A DNA stretch of 64,000 nt from TPA_inf: Saccharomyces. Lineage: Eukaryota. The position numbers were made by a program, and so were the translations under genes. Below are positions 4,648 to 52,669 of the stretch, in pieces. The notes beneath the pieces are model-generated. The model was not told the origin of the DNA and made no database searches. It was given only the letters and a program-made list of their open reading frames with translations. Every line of letters begins with the position of its first letter. The stretch's first letter is position 1. The stretch spans positions 96,001-160,000 of the forward strand of contig BK006934.2 of assembly GCA_000146045.2 (NCBI GenBank), read 5' to 3'.

Positions 4648-5883
4648 TTATTCACACTTTTCCTTAGATTCTTCATTTTCAGCGCTCTCATCAGAATCAC
4701 TGTCACTTCTTTCGTCCTTTTGGATACCTTGCCATATCAATCTGTACAAGATTCTAAGAATTAAAAACAGCCAATACAGGTTAACTAATTGTAACGCAGC
4801 AATTAGTACAAATACAATTGGCAACGAAATCCAACATTTGTATTGTTGTGTGGCAAAATTCAACACATAATTACCTTCATGACGGAATTCTGTTAAGACT
4901 GACCATAATATTCTGATATTCACGACATGGCGCAGATAGATCCAAAAGAACACGAACAAGCCGAACACAAAGGGAGTAAATACAGAATTCAGATAGTTTA
5001 ATGTCTTAGACAAAGAAAGGAAAAAATCTGACACATCCATAGTAATATAGATAGCCAATCCCATTTTGGTAAAATGGAAAACATATGATGACCAAATTAA
5101 TAATAATGTCACAATGTGATGAAAAACCAATTCCTTGTAATCCTTTCTTGGCTTTTCTAATTGTAGAACAAGAACACAAGCCTGTTGCGCCCAAAATGCC
5201 GCTTGACCCAAGTAAAATATCTTAAACAAGAACGGATTGGTTATAACAGGATATGTTCTGTACATTGGTTTTGTCTTGAACAACCACAAATCACTATGGT
5301 ACATAATATAAAGACCAAAGGGCCCTGAAACTCCGCAATAAAATATGGCATACATTTGTTCTAGCATACGCTTTTGACGATGCTCGGAAGTAACATTTAG
5401 GTATACCGTGAATGGTCGAATTACAACATCCATCAAAAACTCACGTAAAAATGTGAAGAAAATCATGTAGAAAAACACAAAACTCAAATCTTTGATACCT
5501 TTTGCATATGAGTCTGTGCCATCAACTTGATATGATATGGCTACGAACATGTGCAGCGGGTTTGATTCTGTTCTATTCCCAGATAAAAAGTACGCGCTAT
5601 ACACGCATACAAGTATGAAGAATGGTGTCAACCAACTATGACGGTAATTCATTTCTCTATATGAAAACCAAACCTTCCACAGTAGGTCACTATCCTTTTT
5701 AGAGTCACCAGTCAAGGCTTTCATCCTTTTTTTGGCCTCATTTTTAGAGGCAGCACTTTCAGGCATGGCTGCAAAGCCAGGAACTGTATCACCTAAATCA
5801 ATTTTACCCACGGAAGAGTTTCGTCTTCTTGTTTTTGCATTAACAACTAACCTATCGATAGATTTGTCCGTAGCTGATGTCAT
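4648..5883 (-). CDS. LAG1: LAG1, ceramide synthase component, 411 aa
   Basis: 411-aa multi-pass membrane protein with a Lag1/TLC-domain sequence (…[39 protein letters not shown]…) and an acidic C-terminal tail. Confidence 0.9.
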
Positions 5884-8225: not shown

Positions 8226-9091
<866 letters not shown>

Positions 9092-9583
9092 AAAAAGAAG
9101 AATAATTCTAAAATCCATAGGTAAGTACTGAAAGCAATTTTGCGTTCCGTCAATGCATATTATATATATTAATCTTAACCATTTATGTAAACAACATATC
9201 ATTTCATTTTGTTCTGGCCACATTCCCTGTTCCTCTCAATATAGTGATGTTTTATAAGGGATATTCTTTGCGGCTCCATTATAAATACACTTTACCATGA
9301 GAGTTTCCTCACCAGCTATATTACTCGCGCCAACTACCATTCGACGCAAGGAACAAAAAAGCATCTAGATAATAGTAGAGAGGTGGTGATACACCCTCAG
9401 GTTGCTATGACGATATATTCTCCGTAAATTCTTTCTTACGATTATTCCTTTAGATCGGCAAGAGATTTGGGCTTGAGGAAGCGATAAAATTCTTTGTTGA
9501 CAAAACTCTCCCTTAGTGCTTGTGAAATAAACATCAATAATCATTTTTTTATTTTTCGCGTTTTTAAGATAATGTCTTAACCA

Positions 9584-9703
9584 ATTTTCTAAGTTCGGAA
9601 CACAAAACCCAATGTTTAATCATTTTTAATAAACAATTTAGTATATATATTATTTTAATTTTATTAAATTAATTAAAATTAAAAGAATTATTAGTCATGT
9701 GAT
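9584..9703 (-). other. CEN8: CEN8 point centromere. CDEI at 9696-9703 (ATCACATG on the minus strand), CDEII at about 9609-9695 (an ~87 bp tract almost entirely A/T), CDEIII at about 9584-9608 (minus strand GTTTTGTGTTCCGAACTTAGAAAAT with the central CCG)
   Basis: The three conserved elements are in the right order and spacing. CDEI matches RTCACRTG. CDEIII matches TGTTT.TG.TTCCGAA....AAAA. The site lies between RPL14B (YHL001W) and OSH7 (YHR001W), where the arm designation changes. Confidence 0.88.
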
Positions 9704-10054: not shown

Positions 10055-11368
10055 ATGGCTCTCAATAAACTAAAGAATATACCTTCTTTAACAAACAGTT
10101 CTCATAGCTCAATTAACGGCATTGCATCCAATGCTGCAAATTCCAAACCAAGCGGAGCAGACACGGATGATATCGATGAGAATGATGAATCTGGGCAAAG
10201 TATTCTATTAAATATTATTTCCCAGCTGAAGCCAGGTTGTGATTTATCTAGAATCACACTTCCGACATTTATTCTGGAAAAAAAATCGATGTTGGAGAGA
10301 ATCACTAATCAATTACAATTCCCAGATGTTCTTTTAGAAGCACACTCCAATAAAGACGGGCTGCAAAGGTTCGTTAAAGTGGTAGCATGGTACCTAGCAG
10401 GTTGGCACATTGGGCCCAGGGCTGTGAAGAAGCCCCTAAATCCCATTCTTGGAGAACACTTTACAGCTTATTGGGATTTGCCTAACAAGCAACAAGCCTT
10501 TTACATTGCAGAACAAACGAGTCACCATCCTCCTGAATCTGCGTATTTTTACATGATTCCAGAATCGAATATTAGAGTTGATGGAGTTGTTGTGCCAAAA
10601 TCGAAATTTTTAGGAAACTCAAGTGCTGCAATGATGGAGGGGTTAACTGTATTGCAATTCCTTGATATCAAGGATGCAAATGGTAAACCAGAGAAATATA
10701 CTCTATCGCAACCAAATGTTTACGCAAGGGGAATTCTGTTTGGCAAGATGAGGATTGAATTGGGAGATCACATGGTCATTATGGGTCCTAAGTATCAAGT
10801 GGATATTGAGTTCAAAACAAAGGGCTTTATTTCTGGTACCTATGATGCAATTGAAGGTACAATTAAGGATTACGATGGTAAGGAATACTACCAAATTAGT
10901 GGTAAGTGGAATGATATTATGTATATCAAAGATTTGAGGGAAAAAAGCTCTAAAAAGACTGTTCTCTTCGATACTCATCAGCATTTTCCTCTAGCTCCTA
11001 AAGTCCGCCCATTGGAGGAACAGGGAGAATACGAATCGAGAAGGCTTTGGAAGAAGGTTACGGATGCGCTGGCTGTACGTGACCATGAAGTAGCTACAGA
11101 AGAAAAGTTTCAGATAGAAAACCGCCAAAGAGAGCTGGCCAAAAAGAGGGCCGAAGACGGCGTTGAATTTCATTCAAAACTATTTAGAAGGGCAGAGCCA
11201 GGTGAGGATTTAGATTATTATATTTACAAGCACATCCCTGAAGGGACCGACAAGCATGAAGAACAGATCAGGAGCATTTTGGAAACTGCCCCGATTTTAC
11301 CAGGACAGACATTCACTGAAAAATTTTCTATTCCGGCTTATAAAAAGCATGGAATCCAAAAGAATTAG
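10055..11368 (+). CDS. OSH7: OSH7, oxysterol-binding-protein homologue, 437 aa
   Basis: An OSBP-related domain is present, including the fingerprint region EQTSHHPPESAYFY. Confidence 0.9.
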   Translation: MALNKLKNIPSLTNSSHSSINGIASNAANSKPSGADTDDIDENDESGQSILLNIISQLKPGCDLSRITLPTFILEKKSMLERITNQLQFPDVLLEAHSNKDGLQRFVKVVAWYLAGWHIGPRAVKKPLNPILGEHFTAYWDLPNKQQAFYIAEQTSHHPPESAYFYMIPESNIRVDGVVVPKSKFLGNSSAAMMEGLTVLQFLDIKDANGKPEKYTLSQPNVYARGILFGKMRIELGDHMVIMGPKYQVDIEFKTKGFISGTYDAIEGTIKDYDGKEYYQISGKWNDIMYIKDLREKSSKKTVLFDTHQHFPLAPKVRPLEEQGEYESRRLWKKVTDALAVRDHEVATEEKFQIENRQRELAKKRAEDGVEFHSKLFRRAEPGEDLDYYIYKHIPEGTDKHEEQIRSILETAPILPGQTFTEKFSIPAYKKHGIQKN

Positions 11369-11825
11369 GCTTCTCATTCTATTTTAATTATACTAGTACG
11401 ATTTCTCACTCTGTAATTTAATATCAGTGTAATATGCACCTAGTTATGGGTAGTTTTTGCTAACGTTACGAGCCGCGAAACTGTCCTCAATCTTCACCAC
11501 TACCTCTAATGACTGAAGAATGCTATGCGATATAACGCTGTCGCACTTTGAATATATACTTATATTTACATAGTTTTCAAGTGCGTATTACTATTGCAAA
11601 GTAGTATTTTGTCACGTGATTTTGATCCAATTAAAACTAAATATGGTTCAACCCGTTGTTTCCGCATCAAAAAACCATACCATTTATCAAGGGGACGGGA
11701 TATATCACATAACAGTTTGAATGCATAATTTGTTATAGATATCTTCTGGAATAATCTTCACAGCAAAAGCGCAAGTCGAATAATATATCGATAAATACAA
11801 TCCATAAGACTTAAAACTAACCTCA

Positions 11826-12811: not shown

Positions 12812-13885
12812 ATGACGCGAGATAGCCCAGATTCTAACGACAGCTATAAGCATATAAACAAGAATACTACACAAAAAACCTCGTTTGATAGAAATTCATT
12901 CGATTATATTGTACGATCGGGATTAGCTGGAGGTATATCAGGTTCATGTGCGAAAACACTAATCGCACCCTTAGATAGAATAAAAATTTTATTTCAAACA
13001 TCAAATCCGCACTACACAAAGTACACAGGCTCACTAATAGGATTAGTAGAGGCAGCCAAGCATATATGGATCAATGATGGGGTAAGGGGGTTTTTTCAAG
13101 GCCATTCAGCAACCCTTTTAAGGATTTTTCCATATGCTGCTGTCAAATTTGTTGCTTATGAACAGATTAGGAATACCTTGATTCCCTCAAAAGAATTTGA
13201 GTCACATTGGAGAAGGTTGGTGAGTGGTTCACTGGCAGGATTATGCAGTGTTTTCATAACATATCCGTTAGATCTCGTGAGGGTTAGGTTAGCATATGAA
13301 ACAGAACATAAGAGAGTAAAGCTAGGAAGAATAATCAAGAAAATATATAAGGAACCAGCTTCAGCCACGCTAATCAAAAATGATTATATTCCTAACTGGT
13401 TTTGTCATTGGTGTAATTTTTATAGGGGTTATGTTCCAACTGTACTTGGCATGATACCATATGCAGGTGTTTCCTTTTTTGCTCACGATTTACTTCATGA
13501 TGTGCTGAAGAGTCCTTTCTTTGCCCCTTATTCAGTATTAGAACTTTCAGAAGATGATGAATTGGAAAGAGTACAGAAAAAGCAGAGAAGGCCTTTGCGT
13601 ACGTGGGCTGAATTGATCTCTGGTGGTCTAGCTGGTATGGCCTCCCAAACGGCAGCATATCCATTTGAAATTATTAGGAGAAGGCTCCAAGTAAGTGCAC
13701 TGTCACCAAAAACTATGTATGATCATAAATTTCAATCGATATCTGAAATTGCTCACATAATATTTAAAGAACGTGGAGTACGTGGATTTTTTGTTGGTCT
13801 AAGCATAGGTTATATTAAAGTAACACCTATGGTTGCATGTAGTTTTTTCGTCTATGAAAGAATGAAATGGAATTTTGGCATTTAA
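12812..13885 (+). CDS. LEU5: LEU5, mitochondrial carrier family (CoA import), 357 aa
   Basis: Three repeats typical of mitochondrial carriers (PLDRIKILFQ, PLDLVRVRLA, PFEIIRRRLQ). Confidence 0.9.
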   Translation: MTRDSPDSNDSYKHINKNTTQKTSFDRNSFDYIVRSGLAGGISGSCAKTLIAPLDRIKILFQTSNPHYTKYTGSLIGLVEAAKHIWINDGVRGFFQGHSATLLRIFPYAAVKFVAYEQIRNTLIPSKEFESHWRRLVSGSLAGLCSVFITYPLDLVRVRLAYETEHKRVKLGRIIKKIYKEPASATLIKNDYIPNWFCHWCNFYRGYVPTVLGMIPYAGVSFFAHDLLHDVLKSPFFAPYSVLELSEDDELERVQKKQRRPLRTWAELISGGLAGMASQTAAYPFEIIRRRLQVSALSPKTMYDHKFQSISEIAHIIFKERGVRGFFVGLSIGYIKVTPMVACSFFVYERMKWNFGI

Positions 13886-14027: not shown

Positions 14028-15317
14028 CTAAGAATAGTACTCCTCCTCTTTAAAAAGCCTCTCAATAAAATCGAGAACTTCTTCAGAGTATACAGCTGTC
14101 AGTTTCTCACCATCCAGCAAAATCCTTTTTTCGTGAATTTCTTGCTCTTCTTTCGTCATCAGAACAACATTGGTTAAGGAGATTTCTTTGTTAGCTTCCC
14201 ATTTTGTTAGAGCTAGTTTCGTAGAGTATCCGCTAATAGGAGACTTGCCTCTAAACATTTCTTCAACTATATAACCGACCTCTTCTAATCCAAGCAATGA
14301 CGATCGCTCCTTATTTTCATTCAACCGCGCCATCTGCTTTTGGAAAGTCTCTAGGATGCTGTCATAAAACTTTAACCTATTTTTGACCTCATTTTCTTTC
14401 ATTGGATAGCCTGACACTTTGGTTAAAATCCATGTCGCAATACTCAAACCAAAAATACCAGGCATGGTCCCTAATTCCGGTAAATGTCTGAGAGCCTCAT
14501 CTCTGACAGCATTGATTGCACGATGTTCGCAATCTATAGGAGAGAGTATGTCGTCTCGGCGTGGATCGAGCATTTCATTACTAAAAACAACGGAAATCCC
14601 CGTGGCGATACCCCTCTTCCTCAATTTTCTTCTTACACAACGAGATATAGGGTCAAATTCTGTCATGGATATGTCATTTATACTCACACGGGTAGGATCT
14701 GATTTCGTGGCAACACCCATGGAAGAAATAACATCTATTTTATTGTGATGGGCGTACTCTAATAGGTCTACCTTAGATTCTAGATTATCTAGACAATCCA
14801 CGATAAAAGTTGGGGACTCACCGTCTGCAAAAATTAAATCGTGTGAGTTTTCTTTAGTCCAGGCCTTGGCCCTTGCTTTTATTTCAGACCAAGGAGCAAT
14901 TTTAGACAAGTGTTCTTTCAAGCATTGAACTTTGGGCTTTCCAATATCTGATAAAACTGCGCAACAGTGGGTATTCAAAGAGTCGATAGATATGTTTTCT
15001 GGATCTATAATCATAATTTTCTGACAGCCTGAACGAATTAACATTGTGCATACCCACGATCCCACTTCTCCAGCTCCGACTATAACTATATACTGTTCTT
15101 TGATCTTCCTCATACCTTCTTCGCCAAGAAATGCATAGTTACGAGCCAATTGTTCCCTAAATAAGTGGTCATCATATTGACGAGGTCGCGATACGGTTTT
15201 ATTCTTATTAGCCGCACATGAAAGTTTGTATTCTTTCCATACACTTTTGGCAAGTTGGGTTGAAAACACCGATATAAGAGCTGTAGTAGCAATTAACTTC
15301 CACGTATTATTTGCCAT
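14028..15317 (-). CDS. TCD1: TCD1, tRNA threonylcarbamoyladenosine dehydratase (ThiF/MoeB E1-like), 429 aa
   Basis: A Rossmann-fold GxGxxG motif (IVGAGEVGSW) in a ThiF-like domain with an N-terminal membrane anchor. Confidence 0.85.
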   Translation of the reverse strand: MANNTWKLIATTALISVFSTQLAKSVWKEYKLSCAANKNKTVSRPRQYDDHLFREQLARNYAFLGEEGMRKIKEQYIVIVGAGEVGSWVCTMLIRSGCQKIMIIDPENISIDSLNTHCCAVLSDIGKPKVQCLKEHLSKIAPWSEIKARAKAWTKENSHDLIFADGESPTFIVDCLDNLESKVDLLEYAHHNKIDVISSMGVATKSDPTRVSINDISMTEFDPISRCVRRKLRKRGIATGISVVFSNEMLDPRRDDILSPIDCEHRAINAVRDEALRHLPELGTMPGIFGLSIATWILTKVSGYPMKENEVKNRLKFYDSILETFQKQMARLNENKERSSLLGLEEVGYIVEEMFRGKSPISGYSTKLALTKWEANKEISLTNVVLMTKEEQEIHEKRILLDGEKLTAVYSEEVLDFIERLFKEEEYYS

Positions 15318-20106: not shown

Positions 20107-20179
20107 TGCTTCCAATCGGATTTGAACCGATGATCTCCACATTACTAGTGTGGCGCCTTACCAACTTGGCCATAGAAGC
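20107..20179 (-). tRNA. tT(AGU): tRNA-Thr (anticodon AGU), 73 nt, no intron
   Basis: The minus-strand sequence is GCTTCTATGGCCAAGTTGGTAAGGCGCCACACTAGTAATGTGGAGATCATCGGTTCAAATCCGATTGGAAGCA. The anticodon loop is CTAGTAA and the B box is GGTTCAAATCC. Confidence 0.92.
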
Positions 20180-31779: not shown

Positions 31780-33120
31780 ATGATTATAAGGCGCTTATTT
31801 TCAATTTCAAATCGCTCATTCTTCTTGAAGAAACCTCAATTTGATGTAAAAAAAATAATAGAGATGATTCCTCAGTACCAAACTTCTATCCAGAATAGAG
31901 AGCTGATAGAGGCGGATAGTATTATACGAAGCTTACAACTGTTGGGTGAACGGTATCAAAATATAAAAGAGATTGATAAAGTTATTGCGGATATTCAAAT
32001 ACAGAGGAAATCAATTGAGGCTCAAATCAAAAAGGATAAAACAAAAATTACGGAATACTCAGCTGCGCTGAAGGCCCTGAAAGAACAGTACAACGATCAA
32101 AATAGCAAATCGTCGGAGCTGAAAAAGAAAATCTTGGAGACCTGCAAATCACTTCCAAATACCTTGGATCCTACGGTCCCATTAGATGCCCCACAGATTG
32201 AACAATGGATAAACCCTTTAAAAACACATAAAACTTCAGAAGCTCAGGCGCATGTTGATATCATGCTTAAAAAGAATATGTTAGACCTACAGACTGCCTC
32301 GAACGTTACAGGAATGTCATGGTACTATCTATTGAATGACGGAGCACGTCTCGAACAAGCATTGGTAGCATATGCATTGAAAAAGGCAAACGAAAATGGG
32401 TTTTCAAGCTGCGTACCGCCAAGCATCACGAAGAAGGAGTTAATAGATGCATGTGGATTTAATCCAAGAGATATGAATAATGAAAGGCAAATTTACGCTC
32501 TTCAAGACACCAATTTAGGATTGGTGGCTACCGCGGAGATACCTTTGGCAGGTCTAGGGGCAAACAAAGTTCTAGAGTTAAACTCGGGAGAATGTTCTAA
32601 GAAACTAGTTGGAGTAAGTAGATGTTACAGAGCTGAGGCAGGTGCCAGGGGAAAAGATACGAAAGGTCTCTATCGCGTTCATGAGTTTACTAAAGTAGAA
32701 TTATTTTGCTGGAGCAAGCCAGAAACCAGTGCAAAGGTCCTTGAGGAAATAAAGCAATTTCAGATTTCTGTAGTTGAGGAATTAGGAATACCGGCCAAAG
32801 TACTAAATATGCCATCAAACGATCTTGGTAATCCCGCTTTCAAGAAATACGACATCGAAGCTTGGATGCCAGGAAGGGGGAAATTTGGCGAGATAAGTAG
32901 TGCCTCCAATTGTACCGATTTCCAAAGTAGAAGATTAAATACAAAGTACAGGGACGATAACACAGGAAAGCTAGAATATGTGCACACGCTGAATGGCACA
33001 GCAATGGCTATCCCAAGAGTGATAGTAGCACTAGTAGAAAATTTCTATGACCCAAGCACCGGTAAGATATCTGTTCCTGAATGTTTGAGGGAGTTTATGA
33101 ATGGCCAACGATACATTTAA
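31780..33120 (+). CDS. DIA4: DIA4, mitochondrial seryl-tRNA synthetase (class II), 446 aa
   Basis: An N-terminal coiled-coil arm and the class II motifs (…FRVHEFTKVELF…, GLGRAIPRV-like C-terminal motif 3). Confidence 0.88.
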   Translation: MIIRRLFSISNRSFFLKKPQFDVKKIIEMIPQYQTSIQNRELIEADSIIRSLQLLGERYQNIKEIDKVIADIQIQRKSIEAQIKKDKTKITEYSAALKALKEQYNDQNSKSSELKKKILETCKSLPNTLDPTVPLDAPQIEQWINPLKTHKTSEAQAHVDIMLKKNMLDLQTASNVTGMSWYYLLNDGARLEQALVAYALKKANENGFSSCVPPSITKKELIDACGFNPRDMNNERQIYALQDTNLGLVATAEIPLAGLGANKVLELNSGECSKKLVGVSRCYRAEAGARGKDTKGLYRVHEFTKVELFCWSKPETSAKVLEEIKQFQISVVEELGIPAKVLNMPSNDLGNPAFKKYDIEAWMPGRGKFGEISSASNCTDFQSRRLNTKYRDDNTGKLEYVHTLNGTAMAIPRVIVALVENFYDPSTGKISVPECLREFMNGQRYI

Positions 33121-36922: not shown

Positions 36923-37025
36923 AAAGATTAGTTTACTTTTTCTGTAGAATGTTAATTAGTTTATTGCATAGAAAATCTTTAATACTGAATGACAAAATTT
37001 CCACAATTTTTTTTAAAAAAATTAT

Positions 37026-37107
37026 CGACAACTGCAGGACTCGAACCTGCGCGGGCAAAGCCCAAAAGATTTCTAATCTTTCGCCTTAACCACTCGGCCA
37101 AGTTGCC
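37026..37107 (-). tRNA. tS(AGA): tRNA-Ser (anticodon AGA), 82 nt with a long variable arm
   Basis: The minus-strand sequence is GGCAACTTGGCCGAGTGGTTAAGGCGAAAGATTAGAAATCTTTTGGGCTTTGCCCGCGCAGGTTCGAGTCCTGCAGTTGTCG. The anticodon loop is TTAGAAA. Confidence 0.92.
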
Positions 37108-37194
37108 ACTTATTATATAAGTCGTAAGCATAATATCAGGATCTTATGCCTTAGTATAAGTCAATTGAAATTGCAATCCTTGTATGTTTTATAT

Positions 37195-37395: not shown

Positions 37396-37564
37396 ATATT
37401 TCGGCTTCTTTTATGTGTATGCGATTGCGTATTACTAAATATAAATTTATATTTCCTGCGACCATTTGTCCGTCAGAAAAGGCTCTCAAAAAAACAACAC
37501 TACCCTTTTACCGGAAATCACAAACTAAATGTTAAAATAAGAATTTAACATCATCCATTGATTA

Positions 37565-38320: not shown

Positions 38321-38392
38321 GGTCCTATAGTGTAGTGGTTATCACTTTCGGTTTTGATCCGGACAACCCCGGTTCGAATCCGGGTAGGACCT
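38321..38392 (+). tRNA. tQ(UUG): tRNA-Gln (anticodon UUG), 72 nt, followed by a T7 pol III terminator
   Basis: GGTCCTATAGTGTAGTGGTTATCACTTTCGGTTTTGATCCGGACAACCCCGGTTCGAATCCGGGTAGGACCT. The anticodon loop is TTTTGAT and the B box is GGTTCGAATCC. Confidence 0.92.
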
Positions 38393-50241: not shown

Positions 50242-50314
50242 TGGACGAGTCCGGAATCGAACCGGAGACCTCTCCCATGCTAAGGGAGCGCGCTACCGAC
50301 TACGCCACACGCCC
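50242..50314 (-). tRNA. tA(AGC): tRNA-Ala (anticodon AGC), 73 nt
   Basis: The minus-strand sequence is GGGCGTGTGGCGTAGTCGGTAGCGCGCTCCCTTAGCATGGGAGAGGTCTCCGGTTCGATTCCGGACTCGTCCA. The anticodon loop is TTAGCAT. Confidence 0.92.
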
Positions 50315-50671: not shown

Positions 50672-51870
50672 GAATGAGTGGTATTAAAGAAATAAGGAAT
50701 ACCATAAGGTTGATCAAAATTAAATATTGGAAGGAAGGTAACTAGCTTTTTGACTTTATTATTGTTGGAACTAATAATCATTAATATTCGACACTTTAAA
50801 AATTTTTTATAAGATTAATATCGTTGCAATTAATACACCGTTTGTTGCTATGCTAACAATGTGAATACGCACACCGTATATTTATGTTCATTTCGTATAT
50901 GTTTTTGCATGGGTGTGCCTTTTGCAGAAGACAGAAATGTTGTTCTGGCAAGGGAGACAATAGTTCAGTTGAGGTAAGGCCCTATTAGTTGAACATTAGA
51001 GTGCAAGTCATATATATGAGTAAAATGGGTGTCACATTAAATATATCGTGACTACCCAATCTTCTATTGTATTGGTGGTATTTAAGGTGAACTAATCCGC
51101 ATGTGTTTTATATAATTTCAGACAGAAACAATTATCCTTAGTGAAAAAAATAAGAAAATTCTGGTTCGGTTATTGAGTTATTTTAAAACCTTATTCCTAA
51201 CAGCAGCTTTCACTATTTCCAGTGACATTTATGCCCGGTATAATGACCATTGCAATAACATGTATACATGTAATTCCAGGTGCATCATTTATGCTTCTGG
51301 CACTTACAGTATAGATTTTAATACCAAAAAATGGTATCAGTAATGTTACCAGCGATTTCTAACCAAATGTGACTGGTATTACTATTAGGGTATTCGATGT
51401 ATCAAATGTTACTATCATTATCACTATTGTGGATATAGTATTGGGCTCTATCACGATACTCCATTTAACTCCTACAAAGAGGTTACGCTCGGATGAAATG
51501 CCTTTGTTTAACACCACAGCAGCTAACTGTGGCTACAGGGTCGAGGACTATATCTGCACTTTTATGGTCATTACTAAGAATACTAGAGAAACTTACTGTA
51601 CGATACAATTCAAATGACAAAACCTCCTCTCCTACGGATTGTGCCTTTGATCATAAGATTAACAATGTCAAGAATGTTCCTCTCCTTTTAAACATCATTG
51701 GAAAATTCATTATTTAAATATATAATGAACCTGCCGACCTACTTCAACATCGCCTCCTTAGCGTATCCTTTCCGATTCTAAAAGGTTAATTTAATTGATT
51801 AAAAGTAAATTTATATTTATATATTTAGATAAAAGAAGATGATTTTAACTACACAAAAAAATAAATTAAC

Positions 51871-52669
51871 TTACTTTCTTCTGAAAGAAGTACCTTCAGA
51901 TAATTTGGCCTTACCACCGGTTGGAGTACATAAGACAGTAGAGCATGATTCACAAGTGACAGCAGTTTGAGCATGAGAAAAAACAGTGGTGATGTTCAAA
52001 CAACCTGGGCATTTGACATCCAAGAAGTAGGATCTTGGGCCTTGAACCAAAGTCTTTAACTTGTGCTTTCTGGCTTCAGAAGCAGCAGTTGGGTGCAACA
52101 AATCTTGAACTAAAACCTGTAATGAAATAAATAGAAACGAAAACGAAAGTCGTTTCACAAAAAAATTGATGTTAGTAATTTGAAAACTGTAGGGTTGGGT
52201 AGGATACATCAGAAAAGTTAGAGGAGACAGGAAAAAGTGAGCATTTGTGCTCCAAAAAAAGAAGGATAAATCATTACCCAGCAGTATCCGGCATCATGAT
52301 CCGCCATCTTCAACTGCTATAAGTTTCTATTATTGTTAGATTACCCATAACTCAACACCATATGCTTATCTCCACAGTAGATCTCAAATTTTCTGCTATA
52401 CAGAGCCTTTCAATTCCCTATCTAAAAATTAATTGCTTTCTTTGCACGTCTTTAAAGTCTCCGTTACCAGTTTAATGCATGATTTGTTGATTTTGCGGAA
52501 ACGCATACTCCTATCAAATGTCAGAGGTTGATTACTGCTTTATTTTCCTTTCTTTCTTTTTATTTTAGGCTTTTTTCTTCTACTAGAATTTCATCCGAAT
52601 TCATTCCTCAAATATTGTTCTCTTCTGTTTCCTTCACATCTTATGTTTAATATCTCTTTCACATACCAT
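51871..52669 (-). CDS. RPS27B: RPS27B, ribosomal protein S27; spliced: exon 1 52667-52669 (ATG only), exon 2 51871-52116; 82 aa
   Basis: ATG|GTATGT at 52669-52661 on the minus strand. The branch point TACTAAC is the complement of 52171-52177, and the CAG acceptor ends at 52117. Exon 2 encodes [81 protein letters not shown] with a C4 zinc ribbon. Confidence 0.88.
52117..52666 (-). other. RPS27B intron (550 nt)
   Basis: Its boundaries are forced by the conserved S27 N-terminus MVLVQDLL. A phantom in-frame ATG at 52209 inside the intron accounts for the 112-aa ORF in the track. Confidence 0.85.

Follow-up and report, generated by a model that had tools for sequence, protein, structure and literature searches.

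The 64-kb stretch of DNA analysed here (hereafter, the window) contains CEN8, the point centromere of Saccharomyces cerevisiae chromosome VIII, on the minus strand at positions 9585-9703, an assignment to which we give a probability of about 0.98. The published 119-bp Scer_CEN8 sequence (Chr8, complement(105581..105699); PMC3141009 Table S2) occurs exactly once in the window, precisely at this location. A sequence-only reading of the same DNA had proposed a three-part point centromere, CEN8, and is borne out, with 119 of 119 positions identical to the published element and with all three of its parts, CDEI, CDEII, and CDEIII, present. There is nothing new in the finding itself, given that CEN8 has long been known, is already annotated, and has been dissected experimentally. 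Compared with S. cerevisiae CEN8 as described by Gordon, Byrne & Wolfe 2011 (Table S2) and, in the context of synVIII, by Lauer et al. 2023, the element in the window is the same over 119 bp, in its neighboring genes, and in its orientation. The only differences from published CEN8 are those of bookkeeping, namely, a length of 118 or 119 bp, depending on whether CDEIII is counted as 25 or 26 bp, and the 120-bp span given in the sequence-only reading.

The surroundings of the element point to the same chromosome. The OSH7, LEU5, LAG1, and TCD1 proteins match those of S288C exactly, which identifies the window as part of S. cerevisiae chromosome VIII, and a 7.3-kb stretch of the window is identical to a chromosome-sized NCBI record of S. 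cerevisiae (L004, about 570 kb). In the current reference, CEN8 occupies what we take to be chrVIII 105586-105703, so that the window would correspond to chrVIII 96001-160000. CEN8 follows RPL14B and precedes OSH7, whose ATG is 351 bp away, and is oriented with CDEIII toward the left arm and CDEI toward the right arm, in agreement with the synVIII paper (PMC10667555). The coordinates of the main features are collected in Table 1.

Table 1. Features of the CEN8 locus, its orthologues in two other Saccharomyces species, and additional elements (window coordinates unless another locus is named)
Feature	Position	Strand	Remarks
LAG1	4651-5883	-	protein identical to S288C
RPL14B (YHL001W)	8277-9091		138-aa Ribosomal_L14e protein; immediately left of CEN8
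CDEIII-proximal pericentromeric flank (RPL14B 3' end and spacer)	9086-9584	.	outside the 118-bp core; our own mapping of the '500 bp CDEIII-proximal' that PMC10667555 reports as a requirement for full function of CEN8, both on plasmids and ectopically
CEN8, whole element	9585-9703 or 9586-9703	-	119 bp with a 26-bp CDEIII or 118 bp with a 25-bp CDEIII
CDEIII, GGGTTTTGTGTTCCGAACTTAGAAAA	9585-9610 (26 bp) or 9586-9610 (25 bp)	-	CCG at positions 13-15
Central CCG triplet of CDEIII	9596-9598	-	CGG on the plus strand; essential Cep3 Zn2Cys6 half-site according to PMC6077249
Left half-site GGG of CDEIII	9608-9610	-	CDEIII positions 1-3
CDEII	9611-9695	-	85 bp, 92.9% A+T, 6 G/C; short A and T runs; predicted DNA of the single Cse4 (CENP-A) nucleosome
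CDEI, ATCACATG	9696-9703	-	8 bp, read directly; E-box-type site for a Cbf1 homodimer
OSH7 (YHR001W)	10055-11368		protein identical to S288C
LEU5	12812-13882		protein identical to S288C
TCD1	14031-15317	-	protein identical to S288C
tRNA Thr-AGT	20107-20179	-	tRNA/Rfam scans
tRNA Ser-AGA	37025-37108	-	tRNA/Rfam scans
tRNA Gln-TTG	38321-38392	+	tRNA/Rfam scans
tRNA Ala-AGC	50242-50314	-	tRNA/Rfam scans
ARS consensus WTTTAYRTTTW, perfect matches	31958-31968, 37436-37446, 51809-51819		number not above chance
S. kudriavzevii orthologue of CEN8	L007, 2185-2302		CDEI GTCACATG; CDEII 84 bp, 89.3% A+T; CDEIII TGGGTTTGATTTCCGAACGTTTAATG
S. uvarum orthologue of CEN8	L009		CDEI GTCACATG; CDEII 86 bp, 88.4% A+T; CDEIII TGTGTTTGTGTTCCGAACATATAAAA

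The anatomy of the element is that of a regular S. cerevisiae centromere. The plus strand reads CATGTGAT at 9696-9703, as the sequence-only reading had noted, which on the minus strand becomes ATCACATG, a CDEI that fits both RTCACRTG and the family-wide consensus NNCAVBTG (PMC3141009). In S. cerevisiae, the 16 centromeres have a CDEII of 78-87 bp with 86-98% A+T, limits within which CEN8 falls on both counts; across the family Saccharomycetaceae, the A+T content is 76-98%. As in all S. cerevisiae centromeres, positions 13-17 of CDEIII read CCGAA, and positions 2 and 8 are both G. The earlier reading had delineated CDEIII as GTTTTGTGTTCCGAACTTAGAAAAT on the minus strand at 9584-9608, with 87 bp between it and CDEI, and this sequence and spacing are indeed found; the CCG-bearing CDEIII thus stands, but its frame is 2 bp off the convention that places CCG at positions 13-15. 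The A/T content of about 95% ascribed to the spacer was an overestimate, the 87-bp spacer being 90.8% A+T and the 85-bp CDEII 92.9% (91-93% overall). The statement that everything in the window lies within about 55 kb of the kinetochore is arithmetically right (64000-9703 = 54.3 kb). What needs correcting is confined to details, namely, the frame of CDEIII, the A+T figure, and the suggestion of a plasmid assay, which has already been published.

Comparison with other species of the genus shows that the element is conserved in place and in architecture. In the neighboring DNA of S. kudriavzevii (L007) and S. uvarum (L009), which was fetched via the OSH7 orthologues, a three-part element is located in the same spacer, flanked by the L14e gene and OSH7, on the same strand and in the same orientation as CEN8. 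Across the species, 17-22 of the 26 CDEIII positions are identical to those of the window, and a single position of the 26 separates the S. uvarum CDEIII from that of Sbay_CEN8 (Gordon et al. Table S5). The CDEIII core GTTTG..TTCCGAAC is shared by S. cerevisiae with the CEN8 of S. kudriavzevii and of S. uvarum/S. bayanus, where CDEII is 84-86 bp long and 81-89% A+T, whereas the orthologous CDEI begins with G in S. kudriavzevii and S. uvarum and with A in S. cerevisiae. The identity of CDEII between species (0.58-0.66) is no higher than that of composition-matched shuffles (0.63-0.67 ± 0.03), with the length kept at 84-86 bp. Saccharomyces point centromeres have been described as keeping CDEI and CDEIII under constraint while the CDEII in between evolves fast but holds its length and composition (PMC3155921), and CEN8, with its syntenic conservation, constrained CDEI and CDEIII, and fast-evolving CDEII, fits this description. 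In a MAFFT cross-species alignment, CDEI was misplaced, as neither CDEII nor the flanks can be aligned, and an element-anchored comparison was used instead. Upstream of OSH7, the distance to the centromere is about 700 bp in S. kudriavzevii but about 350 bp in both S. cerevisiae and S. uvarum, which indicates that the spacer on the CDEI side has changed in length.

Within S. cerevisiae, CDEI is identical in all five readable strains and CDEIII is invariant. Three strains (L001, L003, and L005; positions 2557-2641 of these loci) carry a second CDEII haplotype that differs from the 85 bp of CDEII in the window at 8 positions, mostly in the CDEIII-proximal third; elsewhere, this haplotype shows 7 differences over the 493 bp of the left flank, whereas CDEI, CDEIII, and the 351 bp of the right flank are unchanged. 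The assembly GCA_000568055.1 (L006) is uninformative here, as a stretch around 2400-2800 of the locus that takes in the centromere and some of the flanking DNA consists of N (1166 in the locus).

The other 15 S. cerevisiae centromeres share with CEN8 the CDEI/CDEII/CDEIII architecture, CCGAA at CDEIII positions 13-17, and G at positions 2 and 8, whereas the CDEII sequence of CEN8 is unrelated to theirs. Gordon et al. group CEN11 with CEN8 under ancestral centromere 2. Centromere CEN11 of C. glabrata (Cgla_CEN11, PMC3141009 Table S2), which is also assigned to ancestral centromere 2, begins with 16 nucleotides, ATCACATGACTAATAA, that are common to CEN8 (window 9688-9703), the two CDEII sequences being otherwise unconserved; this match could reflect either coincidence or constraint just past CDEI.

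Could the three parts have come together by chance, as an E-box for Cbf1 in the OSH7 promoter, an A+T-rich tract, and a CCGAA, without any centromere function? The CDEI motif by itself is found at chance frequency, with 7 occurrences of RTCACRTG in the window against 5.6 expected, CCGAA occurs 80 times, the site is placed 351 bp upstream of the OSH7 ATG, and about 5 positions of CDEIII do not follow the textbook consensus. Indeed, a textbook CDEIII consensus (TGTTTATGNTTTCCGAAANNNAAAAA) had no match in the window with up to 3 mismatches allowed, and as it had missed CEN8, with its roughly 5 departures, its place was taken by a weight matrix derived from the 15 other published centromeres. The combination of the parts is an altogether different matter. 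The pattern TCACRTG-N(80-108)-TCCGAA occurs once in the window, with an actual gap of 96 bp, against 0.07 occurrences expected, and RTCACRTG followed by an A+T-rich spacer and CCGAA likewise occurs once and was seen in none of 300 second-order Markov simulations. The spacer itself, CDEII, is the most A+T-rich 85-bp stretch of the entire window, with 6 G/C compared with 10 in the runner-up. When both strands of the whole window were scanned, with any spacer of 76-89 bp, using CDEI and CDEIII weight matrices derived from the other 15 S. cerevisiae centromeres, CEN8 being left out (Gordon, Byrne & Wolfe 2011 Table S2, PMC3141009), CEN8 scored 33.2 bits against 5.7 for the second-best site; with the leave-one-out CDEIII matrix alone, the scores were 20.0 bits at CEN8 and 5.9 at the next site. 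The sequence-only reading had named a better CDE match between RPL14B and OSH7 as one observation that would speak against it, and the weight matrices find none there or elsewhere in the window. Thus, within the 64 kb, the three-part element is single, and it resides in the 963-bp spacer between RPL14B and OSH7, a locus at which Rfam and tRNA scans returned nothing. Taken together with the identity to published CEN8, the functional literature on this exact locus (PMC10667555, PMC6442628, PMC9371891), and the three-part architecture that is kept in two other species despite a fully scrambled CDEII, the simulations and the weight matrix refute chance co-occurrence, to which we assign a vanishingly small probability.

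An A+T-rich tract of this kind might also be mainly an ARS, or a terminator or nucleosome-free region of RPL14B and OSH7, rather than a kinetochore site, and both its extreme A+T content, which is typical of replication origins and of yeast 3' and 5' intergenic regions, and its position downstream of one gene and upstream of the other would be compatible with such a role. However, a search with the ARS consensus WTTTAYRTTTW found no match in or near 9585-9703, on which ground we reject the origin, and neither an origin nor a terminator explains why CDEI and CDEIII are conserved across species at a fixed spacing of 84-86 bp. We consider this second possibility, too, highly improbable.

Several other features of the window deserve mention in passing. 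Of the perfect ARS consensus matches, the one at 51809 is a candidate replication origin, being located within 51787-51871, which ranks second in A+T content (88%) among the 85-bp stretches of the window. Cbf1-type E-boxes also occur away from the centromere, with two copies of GTCACGTG at 2631 and 2656, 25 bp apart (2631-2663), and an overlapping palindromic pair at 11611-11620, about 200 bp upstream of QCR10; these could be ordinary promoter Cbf1 sites.

The mode of action that CEN8 would share with its class is well established for point centromeres, and for what concerns occupancy, stabilization, and flank dependence of CEN8, we draw on the literature; the identity, anatomy, uniqueness, syntenic conservation, and evolutionary signature of the element come from the present analysis. 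The CBF3 complex would recognize CDEIII, with one Cep3 Zn2Cys6 domain reading the essential CCG, Ctf13-Skp1 contacting the conserved central G, and Ndc10 contacting DNA within and beyond CDEIII. In published work, the Cep3 Zn2Cys6 domains of CBF3 read a TGT/CCG pseudo-palindrome of which the CCG triplet comprises the only CEN bases intolerant of substitution, Ctf13-Skp1 touches the central G, and the Ndc10 contacts reach up to 21-30 bp past CCG (PMC6077249). Via Ndc10-Scm3, CBF3 would then direct one Cse4 (CENP-A) nucleosome onto the 85-bp A+T-rich CDEII, and a single Cse4 particle has been mapped over CDEII at 16 of 16 centromeres (PMC3983907). A Cbf1 dimer on CDEI would stabilize the inner kinetochore and block incoming transcription; by ChIP at CEN8, CDEI mutations abolish Cbf1 binding, and they raise cenRNA8 about 5-fold and loss of chromosome VIII about 3-fold (PMC9371891). 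The single kinetochore assembled in this manner would bind one microtubule and segregate the chromosome.

The CDEIII of CEN8 presents another facet of the story. Of the 16 S. cerevisiae centromeres, CEN8 fits the consensus least well in this element and has the lowest weight-matrix score, 33.2 bits in the leave-one-out scan compared with 35-48 bits for the other centromeres, the latter having been scored with themselves in the matrix. This low score results from the left half-site, GGG, together with a G at position 10. Where the pseudo-palindrome calls for TGT, CEN8 retains only the G at position 2, whereas among the other 15 centromeres, 11 have TGT, two have TGG (CEN9 and CEN16), and two have AGT (CEN5 and CEN6), so that the TGT half-site is no strict defining feature of point centromeres. 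Mutations of TGT are reportedly up to 100-fold milder than those of CCG (PMC6077249). In the orthologues, S. kudriavzevii has TGG as its left half-site and S. uvarum has TGT, and accordingly, the GGG variant appears to be derived in S. cerevisiae.

How far the functional centromere extends beyond the three-part core is a question raised by published experiments with CEN8. The minimal 118-bp CEN8 yielded 9% red colony area, compared with 70% for a 5-kb construct; 500 bp of flank on the CDEIII side largely rescued the minimal element, whereas 1.5 kb on the CDEI side did not, and at an ectopic location, minimal CEN8 either led to aneuploidy or showed no activity (PMC10667555). With about 4.7 kb of flanking DNA, CEN8 supported a stable minichromosome (PMC6442628). 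The plasmid assay with a piece of about 120 bp that the sequence-only reading proposed is, therefore, already in the literature, and its outcome is that the 118-120-bp core alone is insufficient for full function (PMC10667555). This partial function out of context and the poor consensus match of CDEIII are the points that can be raised against the CEN8 assignment, and neither carries real weight. From these data, it can be argued that the functional CEN8 is larger than the core, with the 118/119 bp being necessary but insufficient and a determinant in the CDEIII-side flank (about 9086-9584) being part of the centromere. Apart from the difference in colony area and the rescue by the CDEIII-proximal 500 bp, this possibility gains from the contacts of CBF3/Ndc10, which extend 21-30 bp past CCG and thus beyond the end of the 25-bp CDEIII (PMC6077249), as well as from the left half-site of CEN8 being the most degenerate of the 16. 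On the other side of the scale, most of the flank is unconserved between Saccharomyces species, which argues against a specific sequence element, and the effect may instead reflect the chromatin or transcription context. When a conserved element was sought in the 493 bp of the CDEIII-side flank across the three species, only the RPL14B 3' region (9092 to about 9225) aligned; with nothing but these roughly 130 bp after the RPL14B stop aligning, no specific determinant is evident in the flank. The first 130 bp or so past the stop codon (9092-9225) are near-invariant in S. cerevisiae, S. kudriavzevii, and S. uvarum, the remaining spacer up to CEN8 being unalignable, and presumably represent a constrained RPL14B 3' UTR or terminator. 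On balance, we see even odds that a flanking determinant belongs to the centromere, a proposition that extends the identification of the element as CEN8 and does not replace it.

A more specific version of this proposition would tie the two peculiarities of CEN8 together. If its CDEIII is intrinsically weak, the need for the flank could stem from a specific compensating contact, for example, an extended Ndc10/CBF3 footprint at about 9555-9585, rather than from the general chromatin context. We regard this as unlikely, and the connection between the degenerate half-site and the context dependence of CEN8 is speculation. If it were true, there would be an explanation at the sequence level for the context dependence of a minimal point centromere.

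For the window itself, the CEN8 assignment matters as annotation only, by anchoring this DNA to chromosome VIII of S. cerevisiae and by delimiting roughly the first 20-30 kb on each side of CEN8 as pericentromeric; in yeast, pericentromeric DNA is enriched in cohesin, replicates early, and is suppressed for meiotic crossing-over.
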